Source of the DNA: Staphylococcus phage AH12
Direction: 5' to 3' (one strand)
DNA length: 64,000 nt
Sequence record: OR455461.1
Shown: positions 1,002-28,172 of the stretch, one piece after another
Layout of the letters: every line of letters begins with the position of its first letter
Numbering within the stretch: position 1 is the stretch's first letter
Position numbers and translations under genes: made by a program
Notes under the pieces: model-generated
Databases searched by the model: none
Told to the model about the DNA's origin: nothing
The model's input: only the letters and a program-made list of their open reading frames with translations

Positions 1002-1199
1002 CTAAAAAGAAGTCAAATGCCAGTATATAATAAATGTCAATGATAATGATAATACTATTTTTATTAAATTTATTTTTATATCTTCTCTAAACATTTCATT
1101 AAAAATTGAAATAAATAAAAATGAAATTTCTGTTATAAAAAAACTTAAACTAATAATACCAATCCAAAATAAAATAATCACATATATACCTAACAGCAA
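1002..1199 (-). CDS. small hydrophobic membrane protein
   Basis: 65-aa ORF, mostly hydrophobic. Confidence 0.3.
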   Translation of the reverse strand: MLLGIYVIILFWIGIISLSFFITEISFLFISIFNEMFREDIKINLIKIVLSLSLTFIIYWHLTSF

Positions 1200-2368
1200 C
1201 TTAAAAACATCCTTTCTCGTTTATCTTTTTCCACTTTATTAAATAAAGGACCAAAATATAAATTATCGCTTATTTTTTTATTTTCTTTTTCATATTCGAA
1301 AATTTCATATAACATATTAAAAGTAAAGTTATTACTTCTTATATAAGGAGTATCGTATAAGTTTGATACTGTATAAACATTCATAATGTAATATTTGATA
1401 GCTTCTAAGAAATTGTTGAATTTATATTCTTTATCATTTCTAAATAATTTTAAATAAAAATTATTTGAAAGTTCAAAGTCATATAACCTTTCAATTTTAA
1501 TAAGAGTATTAAATAGATGATTATTTTTATGGTCTTTATGATTCTCTATCAAATTATCTTCAATAATCTCAGTATCTAAAAATATAAATTTATTTCTTTC
1601 TTTAGTATATTCAATGATATTATGAATATTGCCATTCATCATTAAGTTTAAAATTAAACCATTACTATATTTATTGTCTAAATTTACAAATTCATTAATA
1701 AAGTCTGAAAACGTATCTTCTGAAAGGATAAAACGTGTAAAGTTACTCTCAATATCATCTGATGGTTCTATATATTCATAATAGCTATCAACATTATCAA
1801 TATCAAGAAAAATGGTAGACATCTTTGAAGTGTAGTATTTTTCGTCATTATCTAATTCATTAAAGAAATTATTATTTTTAGAAAATTCTTTAATTAATTT
1901 TTTATTAAAATCGTATGGATGTACAGTTAATGCACCTAACGAACTCATTAAATCTTCATCAGTTAATATATTTAAATATAACAATATAGTCTTAATATAA
2001 GATATCGAAACTACAAAATCTTTTCTTTCATAATTTTTAAAATTTTTTTCCATATCTAAAAATATTTCATATTGATTTACTTGATTTTCTTTAATTAAAT
2101 TACCTAAATACATTATTATTAAATCATCATTATTTTCATTTGATAATTCAATTAATGTATCTTTATATTTACTTAATTTATCTTCTATATCTTTATAAAA
2201 GATGGATGTTTTTCTAAAGAAAGTTTTACCACTAAAATAAATTAGGTAATCCATTAATTCTTCAAATAATAATTTTTCATCTTTTCTAATTTTCTCTTTA
2301 TTAATCTTTATATTATTATACTTATTCTCAATTAATAACAAATCTTTTTCTTCAATTACATATTTCAT
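1190..2368 (-). CDS. hypothetical protein
   Basis: 392-aa ORF; GGAGATGG RBS before ATG at 2368. Confidence 0.5.
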   Translation of the reverse strand: MKYVIEEKDLLLIENKYNNIKINKEKIRKDEKLLFEELMDYLIYFSGKTFFRKTSIFYKDIEDKLSKYKDTLIELSNENNDDLIIMYLGNLIKENQVNQYEIFLDMEKNFKNYERKDFVVSISYIKTILLYLNILTDEDLMSSLGALTVHPYDFNKKLIKEFSKNNNFFNELDNDEKYYTSKMSTIFLDIDNVDSYYEYIEPSDDIESNFTRFILSEDTFSDFINEFVNLDNKYSNGLILNLMMNGNIHNIIEYTKERNKFIFLDTEIIEDNLIENHKDHKNNHLFNTLIKIERLYDFELSNNFYLKLFRNDKEYKFNNFLEAIKYYIMNVYTVSNLYDTPYIRSNNFTFNMLYEIFEYEKENKKISDNLYFGPLFNKVEKDKRERMFLSCC

Positions 2369-2382
2369 ATCTTTTCCATCTC

Positions 2383-3090
2383 CTAATTAAATGATTTTGA
2401 TGCATAATGTGTTTTTAATTTTTTAGATATGTGTTCTTTATCTTCTTTATTTATTTGATTAAATAATCTTAGATTGAAGTTTTCCATTTCTTTAATTGAA
2501 TCTAATCTTAAGGCATAATCATCTAGCAGTGCCATAACACGAGCTCCATTCATTATTGAACTATTAAGCGAATCTTCACTTACTAAAAAATCTTTATCAG
2601 ACACTACTTCAGAATTCATGACAATTTTAAAACTGGTATTTTCATTATATTCTGAATTAATAGATTTTAAATAATTTATTAAAGTCTCTACTATTAAGAA
2701 TAATTTTATTTTTACTCTACTTATTGTTAGATGATTCTTAGTTGCGTTTATTTCAAATTTATGATTAAAATGTGAATATACAATATTAAATAATTTCTTT
2801 TCATTATAGTAGTCTATTATTTCTTTAAGAGAATCTATATTTAGTTTATCAGATAATACATATTGAAAAGCAGTAACTAAGAGTAACTCATATCTTCTAG
2901 CATTATCAAACAATTCATTGTCATCCATTTCACTTTCTTGTTGTTTAATCATGGGTATAAGTCTATCTATTTTCTCTGAATCACTTATTTTGCTATTATA
3001 TTTATTTTTCATTTCTTTAGTATCCATATAATCCATTAGATCTAATTTAGTTCTAATGGATATATTAGGATTTTTATTATAATTATACAT
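2383..3090 (-). CDS. hypothetical protein
   Basis: 235-aa ORF, tightly packed with neighbours; AGGAGATTAATATT ATG. Confidence 0.5.
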   Translation of the reverse strand: MYNYNKNPNISIRTKLDLMDYMDTKEMKNKYNSKISDSEKIDRLIPMIKQQESEMDDNELFDNARRYELLLVTAFQYVLSDKLNIDSLKEIIDYYNEKKLFNIVYSHFNHKFEINATKNHLTISRVKIKLFLIVETLINYLKSINSEYNENTSFKIVMNSEVVSDKDFLVSEDSLNSSIMNGARVMALLDDYALRLDSIKEMENFNLRLFNQINKEDKEHISKKLKTHYASKSFN

Positions 3091-3677: not shown

Positions 3678-5540
3678 TTATCTAAATATATTTTTAACTA
3701 ATTCTGATTTAAAACTCTTTCTCAATTTAGTAGATTTTTCTGGCATGTAATTATCTAAATAATCACATAAACCATTGCAGAACTCATTAATTGATAATCT
3801 ATTAATATTAATCTTGTCATATGATATAATTAATTCATTGACTTCAAAACTATATCTACCTTTCAGTTTCTTAGATATATTAGTTATTATAGTTTTAGCT
3901 ATTTTATCATATTTAATATCAAATACAACATCTATATCTAAATCATGTAATAATTCAATATTAATTCTATTTTCAAAATAATCATTTAAATCTTTAAAAT
4001 AATATTTATCAAAATTGATATCAATATCGTAAGTGAAATTATTAAATATAGTATTAATTATATCTATTTGATCTTCATTATCATTACCTTTATTGAATAT
4101 TAAAGGTGTAATAATATTACCTACGGATAGGTCAATATGGTTAATCTTACTTAATCCTTTTTGGTAGAAAATAGAATTAATATTCATTTTAATTCCAATC
4201 TCTATAACTTTTTTAATCTCCTTTTTATCCATTAATTTATTTATAATAACGCTATTATTAATTTCATTAATAATACGTTTTAATTTATAACTATTAGAAC
4301 ACATTATTAATTTAATTAATATATTAGAAATTTCAAATTCTTTTCTAGTAAGATTTTTCGGATCATAGAAATATTTAAATAGAGTATCATAATATTCTTT
4401 AGAACCAATTATACATCTTTGATTGGTTAAATATGATAATGATTTGAGTACTCTTGTTTTATTAATCATTTTATGTTTATTTAATTTATTCTTTTCTATA
4501 TAAATATCATTAATATAATGACCTAATAAATGATTACAATAAGGATCTCTATGTTCACTTGTAGATGAAATTGCTTGTATATTTTCTCTACTAGATACTA
4601 AATCTTTATCTCTGAAAGTATTTCTTCTAACAGTAATAATTTCATCATTAAATAAATCTATCAAAAGAATATTAGGTTTATAAATATCGTATAGAAATTC
4701 TTGTTTAATATCTTTATTAAAGCTATTATTCATTACTTTATTTATTAATATATAAATGAGATCTTCAAATTCATTAAAATATCTGTCTATTATCAATGAA
4801 AACAGATTATTCCCTGTTCCTTCTTTATAATCTATATATTTAGGCGATCTATAATATTCATGCTCATTAGTTAATACATTTAATAGACCTTGCAAATTTT
4901 CATTAGATTCTATTTTTGAACTTATATATTCTCTAACTAAGTTAATAAAATAATCATGTAAATTAATATTAGTATTTTTTATTTTAACACTACTCATTCT
5001 ATCTTTTGTTAAATATAATAATCTATAATAAGGAAATACTATATTTCTATTAAATTCATTTATATTCATACTAGATATTGATAAAGGATAATCTAAATTC
5101 ATAGATTTTAAATAAGTGATTACTATGCTAAAATATTCTATATCTGAAATATATTCGGTTATTACATTTCCTTGCATCTCTGTTCTTAGTTTTTCATTTT
5201 TATATTTGACTTCTAAAGTACTTAATAAATCTTTATATAAACTTCTTTCACGTGCGTCTAACTTACCTGATTTCAGTTGATCCTTTAAATATCTTATTGA
5301 TGTTTCTGAAGACATATATTTTTTATCATCATATATAAATTTTTCATATAAATCATCCATATAATTATAACTTATCTTATTTATTATTCCTATTGATTCA
5401 CTAAAATACTCTTCTAGAATATATTTAATTTTATTATCTTCAATATCAAATATATCAGATAACTTTAAATCAACACCTTCTAAATATTTAAAACTTTCTT
5501 TAATGTAGAACTCTAAACTTTCTGTCATTATCCAATTCAC
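3678..5540 (-). CDS. hypothetical protein (620 aa)
   Basis: Long uninterrupted ORF; AGGAGAGTGAATTGG ATA ATG. Confidence 0.55.
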   Translation of the reverse strand: MNWIMTESLEFYIKESFKYLEGVDLKLSDIFDIEDNKIKYILEEYFSESIGIINKISYNYMDDLYEKFIYDDKKYMSSETSIRYLKDQLKSGKLDARERSLYKDLLSTLEVKYKNEKLRTEMQGNVITEYISDIEYFSIVITYLKSMNLDYPLSISSMNINEFNRNIVFPYYRLLYLTKDRMSSVKIKNTNINLHDYFINLVREYISSKIESNENLQGLLNVLTNEHEYYRSPKYIDYKEGTGNNLFSLIIDRYFNEFEDLIYILINKVMNNSFNKDIKQEFLYDIYKPNILLIDLFNDEIITVRRNTFRDKDLVSSRENIQAISSTSEHRDPYCNHLLGHYINDIYIEKNKLNKHKMINKTRVLKSLSYLTNQRCIIGSKEYYDTLFKYFYDPKNLTRKEFEISNILIKLIMCSNSYKLKRIINEINNSVIINKLMDKKEIKKVIEIGIKMNINSIFYQKGLSKINHIDLSVGNIITPLIFNKGNDNEDQIDIINTIFNNFTYDIDINFDKYYFKDLNDYFENRINIELLHDLDIDVVFDIKYDKIAKTIITNISKKLKGRYSFEVNELIISYDKININRLSINEFCNGLCDYLDNYMPEKSTKLRKSFKSELVKNIFR

Positions 5541-6248: not shown

Positions 6249-6626
6249 TTATTTTGAATCTTCTTTAATTTCTTTAACTAAATTATTTATTTCTGTAGAT
6301 GTTAAATCTTTAATATCATCTACATTTTCGAATTTTTCCATTAAGAACTCTAATTGATCTGGAGAAAGATCCATAATTGAATAAAGATCTTCTTCTTCTG
6401 CTTTATTGTAATCAATACTAACATTTAATGGACTAAAGTAAGCATTAAGTACTTTAGTGTTGTTATTTTGATATCTTTTTTCAAATGTAGTATTTAATTT
6501 AAAAGGATTACCTGTATATAACTCTACTAATAAACGTTTTCTTAAGTCTTCATTATTAGAGTACATATTAGTTAATTCATTAATAGCTTTGATAGATCCA
6601 CCGATCATCATGTTAGTTGTTTCCAT
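6249..6626 (-). CDS. possible terminal fragment (last exon) of RNAP beta-like subunit
   Basis: MMIGGSIKAINELTNMYS resembles beta FGGQRFGEMEVWALEAYG. It lies directly downstream of the intron array. GCGGTGAG ATG start context. Confidence 0.35.
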   Translation of the reverse strand: METTNMMIGGSIKAINELTNMYSNNEDLRKRLLVELYTGNPFKLNTTFEKRYQNNNTKVLNAYFSPLNVSIDYNKAEEEDLYSIMDLSPDQLEFLMEKFENVDDIKDLTSTEINNLVKEIKEDSK

Positions 6627-6654
6627 CTCACCGCAGTTATTCTAAATATTATTA

Positions 6655-6780
6655 TTTAGCTAGACTATATCATTACCATTTAAGGTAGAATATATTTAGT
6701 CGTTGAACACTAATTAAAGTGATGCTGATTAATTTAATAATCTCTCAGCAATTAATATTCTTTACATTTATACATTTCTA
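6655..6780 (-). mobile_element. mini group I intron-like element (copy A)
   Basis: Minus-strand reading gives AAUUGCUGAG (P-like), AAUCAGCAUC (Q-like), GUUCAACGACUAAAUAU (R-like), a hairpin, then GAUAUAGUCU (S-like); boundaries approximate. Confidence 0.55.
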
Positions 6781-6877
6781 TATAACGGAGCCTTTTATTT
6801 GACTCTGAGAGGATTGTTGTTTATTCTTGATCTGTAAAACTTAGACATTTATATTAACTATATTTATTTAAAAAATA

Positions 6878-6995
6878 GATTAGACTATATCATTACCATT
6901 TAAGGTAGAATATATTTAGTCGTTGAACCTCTTATTTGAGGATGCTGATTAATTCAATAATCTCTCAGCAATTAATATTCTTTACATACATATTA
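6878..6995 (-). mobile_element. mini group I intron-like element (copy B)
   Basis: Same P/Q/R/P8/S architecture; IGS-like GAAAUA sits 13 nt before the P3 strand GAAUAU. Confidence 0.55.
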
Positions 6996-7117
6996 TTTCT
7001 AATACATGGGACACAAAATTTATCCGGTGTTCTTGTGGGAATACCACTGTAATTATTAAAGTCAATTGATTTTGCACTTAATTTCTATTTTATTAATCTT
7101 TATAATATAATTTATAA

Positions 7118-7235
7118 AGTATAGACTATATCTTCATTCTATATTATAGAAGAACTATATTTAGTCGTTGAACACTATTTAAAGTGATGCTGATTATTTT
7201 ATTACTCTCAGCAATTAATAATTTAATAATTCTTT
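7118..7235 (-). mobile_element. mini group I intron-like element (copy C)
   Basis: Same architecture; P3 here is GAAUUAU/AUAGUUC, which covaries with other copies; P9-like hairpin CUUUAUAA...UUAUAAAG. Confidence 0.55.
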
Positions 7236-7283
7236 AATTTATATAAAGAACGGCAAATAATTTACCTGATGGTTCATGTTTTA

Positions 7284-8831
7284 CGAATCTATATTAACTT
7301 CATATAGATCCCAGACTATATCTTAAAGTCTATGAAGACCTTTCACTTATTTAGTCGTTGAAGCTCTTTAATTATATTTTCAATCTCTTTTAAATGGTCT
7401 TGTTTATAGTTTATTCTATAAAGAGGAATATTTTTATTGATACAATATTCATCTTTCATTTTATCTTTCATTCTAATCTCTTCTAATTTTTCTTTAGGAA
7501 ATCTGCTACTAGGATTTTTCCTAAAATGCTGTTCACCATCATATTCAATTAGTACATTATAATCTACTAAATAAAAATCAAATCTTAAATTTTGATTTAT
7601 TTTTAGATCTTCAAATGTTTTCTCAAACTCAACATTTGTATTCGTATCAATTAAATATTTTTCTATTTGACGGTGAGCTAATGAATTTGCATACTGTTTT
7701 GCACAAAAAGGACATTTATTTATAGAATCTTTAAAATATTCTGCTTTCATTTTAAAATTATTTCCACATTTTTTATGATGAAAATTGTAAATATTTTTAG
7801 TTCCCTTGAATTCATTATCTAGTATTAAATATTCATTTGAATTAAATTTTTTATTACATATTTCTAGAAATTCTTTTTTTGTTAAGAATTTATTCTCTAA
7901 GCTACAATGTGGACATTTATAATCATTATTTAACATATTATTTGCTAGCATATTAAAACTTCTGTTACATTTTTTATGAAGGAAATTATGTTTAGTTTTA
8001 ATTCCTTTAAACTTGTCATCTAATAATTCGTAATCATCATAATCTTTTCTATTTTCTTTCATTTTTTCATTAAATGACTTTTTATCGTATTTTAATAATT
8101 TAATTTTATCACAATTAGGACAAATAATAACATTATTTAAAAAACTTCCTCCGGTCATTTCAAATTCAGTTCCACAATCATCATGTTTAAATTTTGTTAT
8201 TTTAGAGAATCCATTATACTTTCCTAAAATAGAATACCCACTTATATTTTTCTCTTTTTTAGCCTTTTCTAAAAACTCTTCATTACTATATTTCACAGAG
8301 AAACAACAATTTGGGCATCGATTCATATTGTATAAAAATTCAGAACCTTTCATTGTAAAATATTTTCCACATTCTTCATGGTAAAACTTATGGTGTTTTT
8401 TAGTACTTTTAAAATCATCAATTAATTTATAACCTTCAGTACTTTTTCTTTTGTTTGCTTCTTCCATAAAAGTTTTATTATTGTATTTTAAACCATTTTC
8501 ACATTTAGGACATCTCTTAGAGTAATCTAAAAAACCTCTACCTGTCATTTCAAATTCAGTTCCACAATCAACATGTAATATTTTATGATTAAATTTATAA
8601 CCTTTATACTCTTCTAATAATTCATAATTTCCAATATTCTTTTCTTTTATTTTATTCATATATTCTTCATGTGTTAATTTTACCATTTATTTCCTCACCT
8701 TTCCAGACCAATAGAAAGGATTTTAATATAATTAAATTAGCATGCTGATTACTTTTAAAGCTTCTCAGCAATTAAAGTGATTTTTCATTTATTGTTACCA
8801 ATATAAGGAAGCTAAAACATAATTTGTCTTT
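7284..8831 (-). mobile_element. group I intron-like element carrying an endonuclease ORF (interrupts RNAP beta-like gene)
   Basis: The P/Q half is at about 8725-8790 (AUGCUGAUUA ... CUCAGCAAUUAA). The R/P8/S half is at 7311-7370. P9 hairpin GAUCUAUAU..AUAUAGAUUC is followed by G at 7284. The 447-aa ORF lies between the two halves and its C-terminus overlaps the R box. Confidence 0.5.
7343..8686 (-). CDS. intron-encoded zinc-ribbon-repeat protein with C-terminal PD-(D/E)xK (Vsr/DUF559-like) endonuclease domain; putative homing endonuclease
   Basis: Five repeats of an H-x2-CG-x2-F-x-M-...-CP-x-C zinc-ribbon unit; C-terminus RFDFYLVDYNVLIEYDGEQHF matches the Vsr/DUF559-type nuclease signature; the final codons (NLRQLNK) are encoded by the intron R box. 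Confidence 0.6.
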   Translation of the reverse strand: MVKLTHEEYMNKIKEKNIGNYELLEEYKGYKFNHKILHVDCGTEFEMTGRGFLDYSKRCPKCENGLKYNNKTFMEEANKRKSTEGYKLIDDFKSTKKHHKFYHEECGKYFTMKGSEFLYNMNRCPNCCFSVKYSNEEFLEKAKKEKNISGYSILGKYNGFSKITKFKHDDCGTEFEMTGGSFLNNVIICPNCDKIKLLKYDKKSFNEKMKENRKDYDDYELLDDKFKGIKTKHNFLHKKCNRSFNMLANNMLNNDYKCPHCSLENKFLTKKEFLEICNKKFNSNEYLILDNEFKGTKNIYNFHHKKCGNNFKMKAEYFKDSINKCPFCAKQYANSLAHRQIEKYLIDTNTNVEFEKTFEDLKINQNLRFDFYLVDYNVLIEYDGEQHFRKNPSSRFPKEKLEEIRMKDKMKDEYCINKNIPLYRINYKQDHLKEIENIIKELQRLNK

Positions 8832-9384
8832 ACTTCAGGTGATACAAATCTCCAACCATAAATGTTCTATTACTAACATCTAGTCGGTTTTTCTTAATAT
8901 TGTATTTATTGAATAAGTATCTGATTTGTTCAGATTCAATATTATCAAAGAAAGGTGCTTGATGAAGTACAATACCATTTTTAATAAAGTCTTCAATAGC
9001 TTCTTTAGTTTCTTCACTATCTAAACTATCAAATAATCTTACATAATTATCATAAGATACTTTATCTGCATCTTTGATATATTCTAATAAATATTCTTTC
9101 TGCTTATTAACATCATCTAACTTACTAATACGATGTCTAATAACGCTTGAAATATGATTTAATTCTAATTCCACTAATGCTGAAGGATTTCCTCTATTAA
9201 TAATACCCATATTATTATGAATTAAGTCTACTCTTTTCTTAATAGGAGTTTTATTATCTTTGGTGAAATCTTCTCCATCAAATTCAGTAATCATTGGCAT
9301 TTCATTATCTGGAACAATCTTAGCTACTACACCTTTTCCACCGTATCTTGTGCTTATTTTTGCATTTATGTTAATGAACTTCAT
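8830..9384 (-). CDS. rpoB-like: RNA polymerase beta-subunit fragment (exon c; real exon probably begins at 9362)
   Basis: KISTRYGGKGVVAKIVPDNEMPMI..GIINRGNPS matches the beta region [27 protein letters not shown]; it ends VGDLYHLK, comparable to VGYMYMLK. Confidence 0.7.
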   Translation of the reverse strand: MKFININAKISTRYGGKGVVAKIVPDNEMPMITEFDGEDFTKDNKTPIKKRVDLIHNNMGIINRGNPSALVELELNHISSVIRHRISKLDDVNKQKEYLLEYIKDADKVSYDNYVRLFDSLDSEETKEAIEDFIKNGIVLHQAPFFDNIESEQIRYLFNKYNIKKNRLDVSNRTFMVGDLYHLK

Positions 9385-9545
9385 AGACTTTACTAAGAAG
9401 ATCAGACTATATCATTACCTTCATATAAGGTAGAATATATTTAGTCGTTGAACACTATTTATAGTGATGCTGATTAATTTTATAATTCTCAGCAATTAAT
9501 ATTCTTTACATATAAATTTTCATTCATAAGGGACCTATTAATTTG
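9363..9545 (-). mobile_element. mini group I intron (183 nt) in RNAP beta-like gene
   Basis: The 5' exon ends GGAU and pairs with the IGS GUCC. Core boxes P, Q, R and S are present, with P3 GAAUAU/AUAUUC and P8 UACCU/AGGUA. The predicted join ...KKPLVHG|SKISTRYGGKGVV has exactly the same length as E. coli [25 protein letters not shown]. Confidence 0.6.
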
Positions 9546-25237: not shown

Positions 25238-25384
25238 CCTTAGTAAGTAAAATACTATTACTATAACTAAAATTGCAACTACAATTCCAGACCATCCCAC
25301 AGGTGGTATTATTGCTAATGGTCCACGGAATATAATACCTAGTATTAATAAAATTACTAGTATAGCTATTAACCAAGTAATCAT
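25238..25384 (-). CDS. small membrane protein (not in supplied ORF track)
   Basis: MITWLIAILVILLILGIIFRGPLAIIPPVGWSGIVVAILVIVIVFYLLR, preceded by GAAAGGAGTAACTAT ATG and followed by a GAGGTAATGAC hairpin. Confidence 0.4.
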
Positions 25385-25450
25385 ATAGTTACTCCTTTCT
25401 TAATCTCCATATATTATGAGATATAAGGATAAAAGGTTGTTTTATAATTA

Positions 25451-25752
25451 TTATTCTTCTTGATCATAATCAGTTCTAGTATCTTTAAGTAAATCTGAAT
25501 CTATACCAGCACCTAATAAATAATAGTAAGTGGTATTCAAAGTAGTTTTATCAGAAAGATCGTCTGGTAAATCTTCTAGACGAGTATAACCATACATTGA
25601 AATGTTTTTATTCATTTCCTGTTTAGCATTCATAGAGTCTGAACGAGGACCCATTAATTCTCTTAATATATCTTGAGACCCAATTGCTCTTAATGCTGAA
25701 GCTTCCATATTTGATACAGAAGCTACCTTGTCCGCACCTGAGAGTTGCGATT
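25451..25752 (-). CDS. 3' exon of an intron-split gene (function unknown)
   Basis: The in-frame GC-rich coding segment QLSGADKVASVSN precedes the annotated Met with no start codon. It begins right after the P9/omega-G of intron copy 25.8k. Confidence 0.4.
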
Positions 25753-25900
25753 ATCCTATATATTTCTATATAAGTCAGACTATATCTTATACTCTTTATG
25801 AGTACCATTATATTTAGTCGTTGAACAATCAATTTGATTGATGCTGATTAACTTTAATTTTCTCAGCAATTAATAATATTATCATTATCATATTACTATA
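25746..25900 (-). mobile_element. mini group I intron-like element (copy 25.8k)
   Basis: P/Q/R/P8/S boxes; P9 hairpin CUUAUAUA-GAAA-UAUAUAGG; ends ...AUAAUCG before CAACUCUCAGGU. Confidence 0.5.
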
Positions 25901-26019
25901 ATAAGCGGCCAAAATTTTTTCATTAAAACCGGTTTTCATTGATCTCGAGGAAGCGTCTAGACTGTATGCGTTTTTCTTTGAGAGGAGCTGCTGTACAATA
26001 ACTTCATACACTATTTTTA

Positions 26020-26150
26020 ATTAGTGTTTAGACTATATATTCATCCTATTAGGAGTTTTAATTTTAGTCGTTGAACTTTATTAAGATTATTCACTTAATA
26101 TTAGATGCTGATTAGCTTCATAAACTTTCCCAGCAATTTAAAAAATTTTA
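26020..26150 (-). mobile_element. mini group I intron-like element (copy 26.0k)
   Basis: Variant boxes AAAUUGCUGGG (P), GCUAAUCAGCAUC (Q), GUUCAACGACUAAAAU (R), GAUAUAGUCU (S); P8 is UCCUA-U-UAGGA. Confidence 0.5.
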
Positions 26151-26226
26151 CATATACATTACTGCATAAGGAGGCTACAACAGTATTTAACCTCTTAACA
26201 TGTAAGTCATTTATCTTTACTATATT

Positions 26227-26354
26227 CATTTTATAGATGAGACTATATCTTCTTTGCCATATATTTAGTCGTTGAACAATTCAATTGATGCTGATCAACT
26301 TTAAATGTCTTTTCAGCAGTTAATATGATTTTAATTGAGCTCATACATAAGTTA
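26227..26354 (-). mobile_element. mini group I intron-like element (copy 26.2k)
   Basis: The upstream exon ends UUGGGU and pairs with the IGS GCUCAA. The P1 pair is identical to that of GyrB intron 2. The last annotated codons of ORF 26341-28026 (LTYV plus stop) are intronic. Confidence 0.5.
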
Positions 26355-28026
26355 ACCCAACTGGTACTTTATATCTAGTTCTTAATGGATCTTCTTTATT
26401 TCCATCATGTCTATAATAAACAAATTCATTCATAGGAACTTCTAATTTGTCTAAAGCTTCTTGTATTTGATTAATATCAGCTTCAGATTTATTAGGTAAA
26501 ACTTCTATATAGAAATTCTCATCACTATTTATGAAACGTTTAATATATCTCATAAATTCTTCATCATTCATTTCATCGTAAAATGATTTATAATTTCTCA
26601 TATTACTTTGATCTTTATCTAATGAAGATATAACATCAAGTATTTTATTTTGAATTTCTTGACGTTTCTTTTTATTGTCGCTTACTGCTTCATTTAAGAT
26701 TGATTCTGGTTCTAGAATAGTTTCATTTAAAGTATTTTCATTGAATTCCATAAAGAATCTTTCGATTATTTCTATATCACTAGATATTGCTTTTTGGAAT
26801 TCAAAACTAGCAGGAATTTCTTTAACACTAAATTTGAATTCTCCATTATCTTTAACATTCTCATCGAAACCAAATTTGTCTGCACTATATCTATTAATAT
26901 CTTCCATATTACCAAATATAATTGGACTATCAATACTAAAGTCTGCTAATACATATCCTTGTCCATTATATGACACAGGGAAAAGTTTTATTCTATTTTT
27001 AGATGGTTCTACATATGAAATTAACTCTATAGATTTGATCCCTAATTTCTTTTCCAATATTTTAAAATAAAGTAAAGATAATAGGTTAGGATTTATTCTT
27101 CCTTGATCTGGTTTAATAGAGAAGTTTTTATCTAATATCATTGAAGGAGTTACTGTATAATATACTTCTTCAGATTTATCTTCAGTAAATACAGGTTTAG
27201 AATTTTTAGTTTTATTATATAGGTAATTAAAAACATCTAATTCATTTTCTAATTGATACTCATAAATTATATCATTTAATTTATTATCAAATTCATAGTC
27301 TCCATAGAATTTATAGATGTCAGTTTCATTATATTTCAAAACTTCTTTATTTGTGAATAAAGGTGAATTGAGTACATTATTCTCTGTAAATATTTTATTG
27401 TATATAATATCTTCTTTAGAATCTGAGAAAATATTATTTCCCATAGATTCTAAAACTTTTACTAAAGTTCTTAATTTAGCATCATTATAGAAATTATACT
27501 TATCTTTATTATAACTTACATATTCTTCAGAATTTAAATACTCACTAAAATCTTTTCTTTTAGTTGAATCTTTACTTAGAAATCTAACTTTAGTAACTTC
27601 TGTAAGCTTATCAATATCATTCAAAATAGTTTTAATACTGCCAGTATCGTTAATAACGATAGGATTTCCACCTTTATAATCTCCAGCATAATCTATTAAT
27701 ATATCTTCTTCTCTACTCTTTTGATTTTGAAGAACGATGAATCTAATTTGTGTATTATCATTAAAATACTTAATTAAACTAATATCAAACCAACAAGAAT
27801 TTCCTTTTTTATCATGAATTTGATTTTCATTATAATCTAATAGAAAATCTATTTCTGATTCAGTGACTAATATTTCTGTTTCATTCACTAAATCAATAGG
27901 AGATTTAATTACACTGATATTATCTGATCCACATTCAGAACAAGATGTAATATCTTCATTATATTCTTGAACTTTGCTACAAGAATTACATCTAACGTAT
28001 TTATTTTTCAATTCATTCACTTCCAA
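26341..28026 (-). CDS. zinc-ribbon-containing protein, probable 5' exon of an intron-split gene
   Basis: 561 aa; N-terminal CNSCS...CSECGS zinc ribbon; the C-terminus runs into an intron (coding probably ends at 26355). Confidence 0.5.
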   Translation of the reverse strand: MEVNELKNKYVRCNSCSKVQEYNEDITSCSECGSDNISVIKSPIDLVNETEILVTESEIDFLLDYNENQIHDKKGNSCWFDISLIKYFNDNTQIRFIVLQNQKSREEDILIDYAGDYKGGNPIVINDTGSIKTILNDIDKLTEVTKVRFLSKDSTKRKDFSEYLNSEEYVSYNKDKYNFYNDAKLRTLVKVLESMGNNIFSDSKEDIIYNKIFTENNVLNSPLFTNKEVLKYNETDIYKFYGDYEFDNKLNDIIYEYQLENELDVFNYLYNKTKNSKPVFTEDKSEEVYYTVTPSMILDKNFSIKPDQGRINPNLLSLLYFKILEKKLGIKSIELISYVEPSKNRIKLFPVSYNGQGYVLADFSIDSPIIFGNMEDINRYSADKFGFDENVKDNGEFKFSVKEIPASFEFQKAISSDIEIIERFFMEFNENTLNETILEPESILNEAVSDNKKKRQEIQNKILDVISSLDKDQSNMRNYKSFYDEMNDEEFMRYIKRFINSDENFYIEVLPNKSEADINQIQEALDKLEVPMNEFVYYRHDGNKEDPLRTRYKVPVGLTYV

Positions 28027-28172
28027 TTCTTTTTATTTCTTAATATGATGATGTTTCTTTACAAATTTACCAAAAAATTAAATAAAATAGGTAATGACCA
28101 AATTAATGATCATTACCTGTATTTAATATTATTTATAATGAATATACTTTACTAATTACAAATCAAACTTTT

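Follow-up and report, generated by a model that had tools for sequence, protein, structure and literature searches.

Two open reading frames (ORFs) on the minus strand of Staphylococcus phage AH12, one of 561 amino acids (aa; 28026..26341, ending VPVG LTYV stop) and one of 85 aa (25708..25451), raise the question of whether they are separate genes or the outer parts of one gene interrupted by introns. The DNA analysed, called the window throughout, is a stretch of 64,000 nucleotides (nt) of sequence record OR455461.1, and the feature under study spans positions 25451-28026. Both ORFs had been reported in an original prediction, which placed three copies of a mini-intron between them, and both are present. 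Alignments to orthologs identify the 561-aa ORF, two micro-exons and the 85-aa ORF as a single gene. By homology, its product is assigned to the C-terminal fragment of the beta subunit of the virion RNA polymerase (RNAP), as the ortholog of AR9 gp077. The gene is very probably interrupted by three ORF-less group I introns similar to the phage IA2 introns, which would be removed to yield one frame. All three lie within 30 codons of the most conserved segment of the gene.

Exon structure and gene product

The region 25300-28200 shows ~96% DNA identity to the Staphylococcus jumbo phages Machias (MW349128) and vB_StaM_PB50 (PB50), and ~80% identity to Madawaska, UFV_DC4, PALS_2, S6, SA1, LY01 and MarsHill. 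All of these relatives are AR9-like phages, which have two multisubunit RNAPs. The gene is free of introns in UFV_DC4 (DC4), SA1 and Bacillus phage Goe21, and exon limits were set by these orthologs, which read YKVPVG-Y-LHVKR-L-QQLLSKKNAYSLDAS(S/T)RSMKTG-QL... across the region. The joined exons of AH12 read ...YKVPVG-Y-LHVKR-L-QQLLSKKNAYSLDASSRSMKTG-QLSGADK..., a segment that aligns with bacterial beta around 1229-1260. The four exons (Table 1) sum to 2055 nt (1672 + 18 + 68 + 297), corresponding to 684 codons, or to 679 when counted from the likely start. The four-exon product is 79.7% identical to that of DC4 over 676 aa and gapless at every junction, and is collinear with SA1 and Goe21 too. 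Exon 3 alone features 91% identity to DC4 residues (tblastn), and exon 4 is 90% identical to the DC4 C-terminus. In phmmer comparisons with PDB beta chains, the spliced C-terminal region forms one stretch along bacterial RNAP beta ~1213-1313, which spans all three junctions (E ~2e-3). A break in homology between the upstream and downstream parts had been named in the original prediction as the observation that would overturn it; homology is continuous in both the gapless ortholog alignments and the single stretch on bacterial beta.

A U precedes all three 5' junctions, and a G terminates all three introns. In introns 2 and 3, nearer 3' G residues lead to a stop codon or a frameshift (for instance, G 26009 in intron 2 leads to a stop). 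A first exon model, in which 3' ends were taken from the Rfam alignment (exon 2 LKINDLHVKR, exon 3 LYEVIVQQLL...), was rejected for its 4- and 5-residue insertions relative to the intronless orthologs. These insertions were gone once each 3' splice site had been moved to the next in-frame G. The terminal LTYV plus stop of the 561-aa ORF had been proposed to be intronic, and alignment to the intronless orthologs places the junction at 26355 accordingly; exon 4 begins with QLSGADK at 25747, as had been anticipated. Both spacers between copies, suspected to be micro-exons, contain one, of 18 and 68 nt. Within the spacer frame that had been noted as open (LHVKRLNTVVAS...), LHVKR(L) is exonic, whereas the remainder corresponds to P1 and P2 of intron 2.

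Two other exon patterns would remain in frame. Exon 2, the length of which is a multiple of 3, might be skipped, causing an in-frame 6-aa deletion, or intron 1 might end at G 26220, giving a 30-nt exon 2 that encodes LKINDLHVKR. Exon skipping has reportedly been observed in Twort orf142, a gene carrying three introns. However, the reading VG-Y-(L/I/M)..., free of any insertion, is common to all intronless orthologs and to bacterial beta. G 26220 is in frame in the window, but the nearer G leads to a stop codon in Madawaska, where AAAUG is kept as the 3' end of the intron. Moreover, the six residues encoded by exon 2 are identical to those of DC4 despite several synonymous changes, which argues for normal inclusion of the exon. 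Both patterns are therefore considered improbable.

Over the 29 codons of exons 2 and 3, AH12 and DC4 differ at 25 nt; 20 codons are synonymously changed, and a single amino acid is changed. This pattern indicates that the micro-exons are under strong purifying selection. The gene might alternatively be dead, or encode separate polypeptides, the upstream ORF ending at its own stop and the 85-aa ORF using its own ATG, with a non-coding repeat in between. The automatic annotation of PB50, PALS_2, LY01 and S6 lists separate ORFs, and the protein database has only truncated products of 544-579 aa for interrupted relatives. We nevertheless regard this alternative as extremely improbable: the micro-exons have no start codon and yet appear to be strongly selected, the ATG of the 85-aa ORF would entail the loss of 13 conserved residues, P1 pairing covaries with synonymous exon changes, as described below, and the segment that would be missing is part of the conserved beta core in phages that are viable. 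If the gene is spliced, as we favour, annotation of the AH12 virion RNAP beta-C gene needs four exons, one of which, at 18 nt, is invisible to ORF callers and to BLAST.

The product had been guessed to be a beta-prime-like piece; it corresponds to beta instead. A profile search with both pieces, suggested at the time, retrieved phrog_3233 (RNA polymerase beta subunit) for each: the last ~107 residues of the upstream ORF (aa 452-558) match positions 2-108 and the translated downstream piece matches positions 137-223 (E values 2e-11 and 1.6e-10 for the two pieces). The gap of 28 positions left between them before splicing is roughly what exons 2 and 3 contribute. The Pfam match of the downstream piece to RNA_pol_Rpb2_7 is sub-threshold (E 0.012). 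AR9, PBS1 and Goe21 are 55-60% identical to the gene over the whole RNAP part (tblastn). A review describes the equivalent subunit of the virion RNAP in Bacillus jumbo phages as a C-terminal beta fragment, and reports the fusion to an N-terminal HD domain for Bacillus jumbo phages only. No Pfam match to an HD domain was found in the AH12 product, the Cys4 N-terminus of which does not align to AR9. The four cysteines are kept in all Staphylococcus-phage homologs, down to 51% identity. The zinc ribbon proposed earlier is supported by this conserved CxxC...CxxC arrangement, whereas Pfam zinc-ribbon matches are sub-threshold (E 0.03-0.2). The start codon is likely TTG 28011, as in the Machias annotation and as indicated by the N-termini of homologs. 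Counted from this codon, the upstream ORF has 556 aa, compared to 561 aa from TTG 28026 of the maximal ORF.

Table 1. Features of the virion RNAP beta-C gene in the window, and intron insertion sites in the gene among relatives
Feature	Position	Strand	Description
Cys4 motif	27931..27990	minus	CxxC-x12-CxxC, putative zinc ribbon; C13, C16, C29, C32 in 561-aa numbering
Exon 1	26355..28026	minus	1672 nt from 28026; ends ...GUU GGG U, phase 1
Intron 1	26208..26354	minus	147 nt, group I
Intron 1 guide	26340-26335	minus	GCUCAA; 15-20 nt into intron
Intron 1 P3	26328-26323 with 26262-26257	minus	
Intron 1 P4	26318-26313 with 26294-26289	minus	
Intron 1 P6	26287-26277	minus	
Intron 1 P7	26272-26266 with 26245-26240	minus	
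Intron 1 P9	26236-26220	minus	
Intron 1 terminal G	26208	minus	
Exon 2	26190..26207	minus	18-nt micro-exon ACUUACAUGUUAAGAGGU, encodes (Y)LHVKR(L); orthologs VPVG-Y-LHVKR-L-QQLL
Intron 2	25996..26189	minus	194 nt, group I
Intron 2 guide	26175-26171	minus	GCCUC
Intron 2 P2	26168-26153	minus	GUAA loop
Intron 2 P4	26135-26130 with 26111-26106	minus	
Intron 2 P7	26071-26065 with 26035-26030	minus	
Intron 2 P8	26054-26044	minus	
Intron 2 P9	26026-26009	minus	
Intron 2 terminal G	25996	minus	
Exon 3	25928..25995	minus	68-nt micro-exon, 45.6% GC, encodes (L)QQLLSKKNAYSLDASSRSMKTG
Intron 3	25748..25927	minus	180 nt, group I
Intron 3 guide	25909-25906	minus	GCCG
Intron 3 P2	25904-25885	minus	GUAA loop
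Intron 3 P3	25878-25873 with 25811-25806	minus	
Intron 3 P4	25868-25863 with 25847-25842	minus	
Intron 3 P6	25840-25826	minus	
Intron 3 P7	25821-25815 with 25782-25777	minus	
Intron 3 P8	25805-25789	minus	
Intron 3 P9	25774-25755	minus	
Intron 3 terminal G	25748	minus	
Exon 4	25451..25747	minus	297 nt including stop TAA 25453-25451; encodes QLSGADKVASVSNMEASAL...DYDQEE
Site A	after VPVG + 1 nt		group I; window, Machias, PB50, Madawaska, LY01, L013-L015
Site B	after LHVKR + 1 nt		group I; window, Machias, PB50, LY01
Near site B	after KRL		group II (GUGYG ... domain V ... AY); PALS_2, S6, LPJP1, L014
Site C	after QQLLS		group I; Madawaska
Site D	after MKTG		group I; window, Machias (mini); PB50, MarsHill (with endonuclease); AR9
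Site E	further downstream		group I with HNH; AR9

Group I identity and proposed splicing

A search of 25400-26500 against Rfam revealed three full-length matches to RF00028 (group I intron), corresponding to intron 2 (26009-26199, 48.4 bits, E 5e-11), intron 3 (25756-25935, 35.4 bits, E 4e-7) and intron 1 (26226-26364, 26.0 bits, E 3e-4). The matches appear only in such a ~1-kb search with laxer filters. The three element copies described earlier are real by this measure, but the limits given for them are those of the intron cores only, and for copies 2 and 3, and hence for the micro-exons, were off by 2-39 nt. The cores match the RF00028 consensus in P4 (UUGCUG...AUCAGCA), in P7 (ACGACUA...UAGUCU) and in J8/7 (GAUAUA). 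At <=2 mismatches, the window contains 12 occurrences of the J6/7-P7 core motif GTTCAACGACTAAA, 11 of which are on the minus strand. By chance, 0.35 occurrences are expected, and 12 were reached in none of 100 shuffles.

Sixteen introns of the family, from the window, Machias, PB50, Madawaska and LY01, were parsed using the anchors UAA-UUGCUG, UCAGCA, UUCAACGACUA and AUA-UAGUCU. In 15 of them, the 6 nt before J3/4 and the 6 nt after J7/3, which form P3, are fully complementary in spite of featuring five different sequences; when partners are swapped between introns, a mean of 4.07 of 6 are paired. Overall, 99.7% of the structure cells are paired, compared to 87% in shuffles, and slid controls drop to 22-51%. 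Changes on both sides were found in 11 pairs, a number reached in none of 500 shuffles. Covarying pairs are located in P3 (4 of 6, columns unfitted), P6 (3 of 4) and P8 (4 of 4), while P4 and P7 are invariant. P5 and P9 were excluded from the test, the P9 columns having been shifted by MAFFT. The family features the P3/P7 pseudoknot and the P4-P6 domain in canonical order.

Introns 1-3 each feature a P1 pairing with a terminal U.G pair (UUGGGU/GCUCAA, GAGGU/GCCUC and CGGU/GCCG, respectively). For intron 1, this exon end and guide had already been pointed out, and the sequence reads ...GUUGGGU followed by UAAC. Exon and guide vary together among relatives. At site A, GGG-U/GCUCAA is found in the window, Machias and PB50, and GGA-U/GUUCAA in Madawaska and LY01. 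At site D, CCGGU/GGCCG is found in the window and Machias, and CGGGU/GGCCCC in PB50 and MarsHill. Synonymous exon changes are thus matched by guide changes, a pattern expected only if the P1 pairing is in use.

In the mechanism that we propose, the whole gene would be transcribed as one pre-mRNA, in which the last exon nucleotides would pair with the internal guide to form P1, ending in the U.G pair. Guanosine would attack after the U of P1, and the freed exon would attack after the terminal G of the intron. Three such splicing events would join the four exons, yielding a subunit of 679-684 aa. Splicing is inferred because Machias and PB50, which carry the same interrupted gene, are viable, plaque-forming and propagating phages, and because the interrupted segment belongs to the conserved core of beta.

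Several points weigh against this interpretation. The structure of the AH12 gene is deduced from DNA sequence. All three RF00028 scores fall below the 50-bit gathering score, and Rfam scans of the whole window (at gathering scores, and at E<=0.01) gave no match, which we attribute to stricter filters on the longer input. In the covariation analysis, we adjusted the columns of P6 and P8 to hairpins. P5 is too AU-rich for confident assignment, and, as judged by eye, the 3' exons offer weak P10 pairing or none. Lastly, it is uncertain whether intron 1, which has no P8, is capable of autonomous catalysis.

Introns 2 and 3 comprise P1, a P2 hairpin capped by GUAA, P3-P9, including P8, and a short 3' tail. 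At the site of intron 3 (site D), PB50 (L002 3749-5067) and MarsHill (L010 1673-3000) carry a 1.3-kb endonuclease-bearing intron. The final 40 nt (P7'-P9) of this intron and of intron 3 are almost identical (AAGAUAUAGUCUGRCUUAUAUAGAAAUAUAUAGGAUAAYYG), whereas the 5' half and the core differ. This mosaic suggests recombination between introns, core replacement or heavy reduction.

Intron 1, an intron without P2 and P8

Intron 1 differs from the other two in its architecture. P2 is absent, as the guide strand of P1 is joined directly to P3 via UUAAAA. P8 is missing because only 5 nt (CAAAG) separate P3' from the AAGAUA of J8/7, and the P8 block is accordingly deleted in the Rfam alignment. Seven of the 16 family introns share the P8-less form, whereas in P8-bearing members a GNRA loop caps P2. 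Known contacts between tetraloops and their receptors offer an analogy: P2 and P8 may interact with each other and may have disappeared jointly. The AAAUG 3' end is kept in the five site-A mini-introns, in the Madawaska site-C intron and in GyrB intron 2.

Introns may be real and removed in vivo, while intron 1 is non-autonomous and relies on a phage or host protein or on some other factor. We hold this to be a genuine possibility, though one short of an even chance. A spacing of 5 nt between P3' and J8/7 precludes P8, which is part of the catalytic P3-P9 domain, while P2 can be absent (PMC3984707). The Rfam score of intron 1 (26 bits) is the lowest of the three, and its helices are short and AU-rich (26% GC). 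On the other hand, P1, P3, P4, P6, P7 and J8/7 are all intact, and viable phages carry the P8-less design in several of their essential genes (GyrB, prohead protease and, at sites A and C, virion RNAP beta). P8-less cores also recur in unrelated huge-phage contigs, which argues for a robust and portable design. Scanning IMG/VR for cores in which P7 and J8/7 are just 8-18 nt apart, we identified 46 P8-less group I-like cores in 42 loci (L019-L060), mostly on contigs of 230-400 kb. In these cores, 12-16 nt separate P7 and J8/7. In those inspected, P3' directly adjoins J8/7, and several feature a long P2 hairpin. The P8-less design is therefore recurrent in large phages and not a local accident, and the IMG/VR cores suggest an unrecognised P8-less subclass.

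A paralog of intron 1 is located elsewhere in the window. GyrB intron 2 (38225-38082, 144 nt) had been singled out for its identical exon end (UUGGGU) and guide (GCUCAA), and both are borne out; moreover, 125 of 147 positions match intron 1. The gyrB gene is also split on the minus strand, with ORF 38976-40511 encoding the N-terminal part, which ends ...IITSDAD, and ORF 38208-38792 ending ...NYFKGLG. GyrB intron 2 has neither P2 nor P8, while GyrB intron 1 (38810-38969) is a P8-bearing member of the family.

Related mini-introns are found at other positions. In Madawaska, the beta gene contains an additional copy 12 codons further downstream (site C), after UUGAGU and with guide GCUCAA. Machias features P8-less minis in the genes for the prohead protease (exon GUGAGU, guide GCUCAC) and for virion beta-prime. 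The guide region of the latter (UACCAUCA; L065, record ~115330-115480) has no G, and its P1 would consequently be without the usual splice-site U.G. Closely related copies are known after UUGGGU (beta site A and GyrB), after UUGGAU (site A of Madawaska and LY01, with compensating guide) and after UUGAGU (site C of Madawaska). Introns 1-3 encode no homing endonuclease, and the feature common to beta site A and the site of GyrB intron 2 is the 6-nt complement of the guide, as predicted by transposition via reverse splicing. The earlier suggestion of homing to a similar target is plausible.

These data prompt a more far-reaching hypothesis, namely, that intron 1 and its GyrB paralog are autonomous ribozymes devoid of P2 and P8 that spread between genes by guide-directed reverse splicing. 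We consider it rather unlikely as a whole. If true, the two introns would rank with the smallest group I ribozymes in nature, with an undescribed minimal architecture, and their spread could have used the reverse transcriptase reported for these phages. Near-identical mini-introns in different genes that share just a 6-nt match provide circumstantial evidence for transposition by reverse splicing, of a kind hitherto obtained mainly from ribosomal DNA. Should the mini-introns self-splice, they would be compact natural ribozymes useful for structure work and engineering.

Insertion sites, neighbourhood and known systems

Across relatives, a stretch of ~70 codons of one gene features five group I sites and one group II site (Table 1). 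Three Logan contigs of more distant relatives (L013, L014 and L015) carry full-size site-A introns that resemble intron 1 in having the same insertion point (CCAGUUGGGU|) and no hairpin between P3' and J8/7. Guides are GCUCAA in L013, the one-base variant GCUCAAG in L014 and GCCCAA in L015; 3' ends are GAUAAUG in L013 and L014 and, in L015, GAUAAAUG, identical to that of the window. Unlike intron 1, these introns measure ~330 nt (L013, L014) or ~1.3 kb with an endonuclease ORF (L015), and keep an extended P5, a P7.2 hairpin and P9.1/P9.2. The P7.2-like hairpin presumably resembles that of T4 td. P3 is UCGCAU/AUGCGA in the Logan introns and UCAUAU/AUAUGR in the mini form, a two-pair compensatory change. 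Site A thereby offers a size series, from ~1.3 kb with endonuclease through ~330 nt to 147 nt without P2 and P8, which illustrates the shrinkage of a group I intron in an essential gene.

Group II introns near site B map to L007 (PALS_2) ~1692-2275, L009 (S6) ~1116-3035, L011 (LPJP1) ~1690-2310 and L014 ~4942-5500. They have a canonical domain V (GAGCCGUAUGAG..GAAA..CUCACGUACGGUU), and the S6 copy contains a 437-aa ORF. L014 carries both the site-A group I intron and the group II intron. Phage group II introns, including those of LPJP1 and AR9, have been reported (PMC12350094).

Six more introns of the family map to the minus strand of the window at 6618-7400 and 9360-10256. Four are arranged in tandem within ~800 bp, one of them with coding-like sequence upstream of P7, and the other two lie around 9.4-10.3 kb. 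In Machias and PB50, the annotation of the corresponding regions reads non-viral RNAP beta subunit, homing endonuclease and UvsX-like recombinase.

Directly upstream of the beta gene lies gyrA (28173-31727, minus strand), encoding 1184 aa with an inserted intein. The gyrA orthologs of Machias and Madawaska are annotated as intein-containing, and in Machias the beta gene likewise lies directly downstream of gyrA. An intein and group I introns occur side by side in the cluster, joined in relatives by group II introns. Between gyrA and the beta gene (~28081-28118, minus strand) lies a hairpin with a T-run behind it (AGGUAAUGAUC...GGUCAUUACCU AUUUUAUU). This hairpin corresponds to a terminator that the Machias annotation shows at the equivalent position, and the beta gene therefore probably has a promoter of its own. 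Machias (L001, 4311-4775) has an extra 465-nt ORF, encoding a hypothetical protein, in the interval from the beta gene to the small gene that follows. This ORF is missing from the window and explains the ~525-nt length difference in the match.

Intron-disrupted RNAP genes have been described in MarsHill-like phages in a preprint by Korn et al. (10.1101/2020.12.14.422802). Since the disruption of RNAP genes in MarsHill-like phages, including that of the Machias ortholog, and in AR9 is already published, the AH12 gene would be, as its sequence indicates, a further case. What makes the case interesting is the minimal architecture of the introns and the match between insertion sites and guides, more than the split gene. 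Our literature search found no description of the four-exon structure with the 18-nt exon, nor of the structures of the 144-194-nt introns. Reports on P2/P8-less group I introns or on the smallest group I intron were not found either; novelty here means absence of evidence, as key papers lay beyond the search.

The orthologs of Machias, Madawaska and MarsHill, annotated by alignment to AR9 YP_009282982 (from which the exon boundaries of Machias were predicted), and AR9 gp077 itself are given as intron-joined coding sequences. Machias CPT_Machias_239 (QQO92615.1, 'viral RNA polymerase beta subunit') has the same three introns at the same positions, and the micro-exons are the same or nearly so. 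The Machias coding sequence is joined from three pieces, whereas its DNA, which is collinear with the window, requires four; as judged from the alignment, the 18-nt exon is probably missing from the annotation. Moreover, the annotation carries the note 'N-terminal', in contrast to the homology, which is to the C-terminal end of beta, and the introns are given without structural description.

AR9 gp077 (YP_009282982) is an ortholog with two group I introns and ~55% identity in the C-terminal region. One of its introns is inserted at the exact codon boundary of intron 3, after ...MK(S/T)G. The AR9 introns are larger (roughly 320 nt; one with an HNH endonuclease), and AR9 has no intron at sites A and B. 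The proteins also differ at the N-terminus, where AR9 gp077 has an HD domain and the Staphylococcus protein a Cys4 motif with no HD match.

A phage gene with three introns is already known from Twort orf142, reportedly described by Landthaler and Shub in 1999. Characterised ORF-less phage group I introns are ~250 nt long, and the Azoarcus intron measures 205 nt. To our knowledge, this tRNA-Ile intron is the smallest biochemically characterised self-splicing group I intron. The core sequences of the AH12 introns also match, as we assume, those of T4 td. Compared to the phage IA2 introns of T4 (td, nrdB and sunY) and of Twort orf142, the AH12 introns are short (147-194 nt) and are devoid of both P7.1/P7.2 and P9 extensions.

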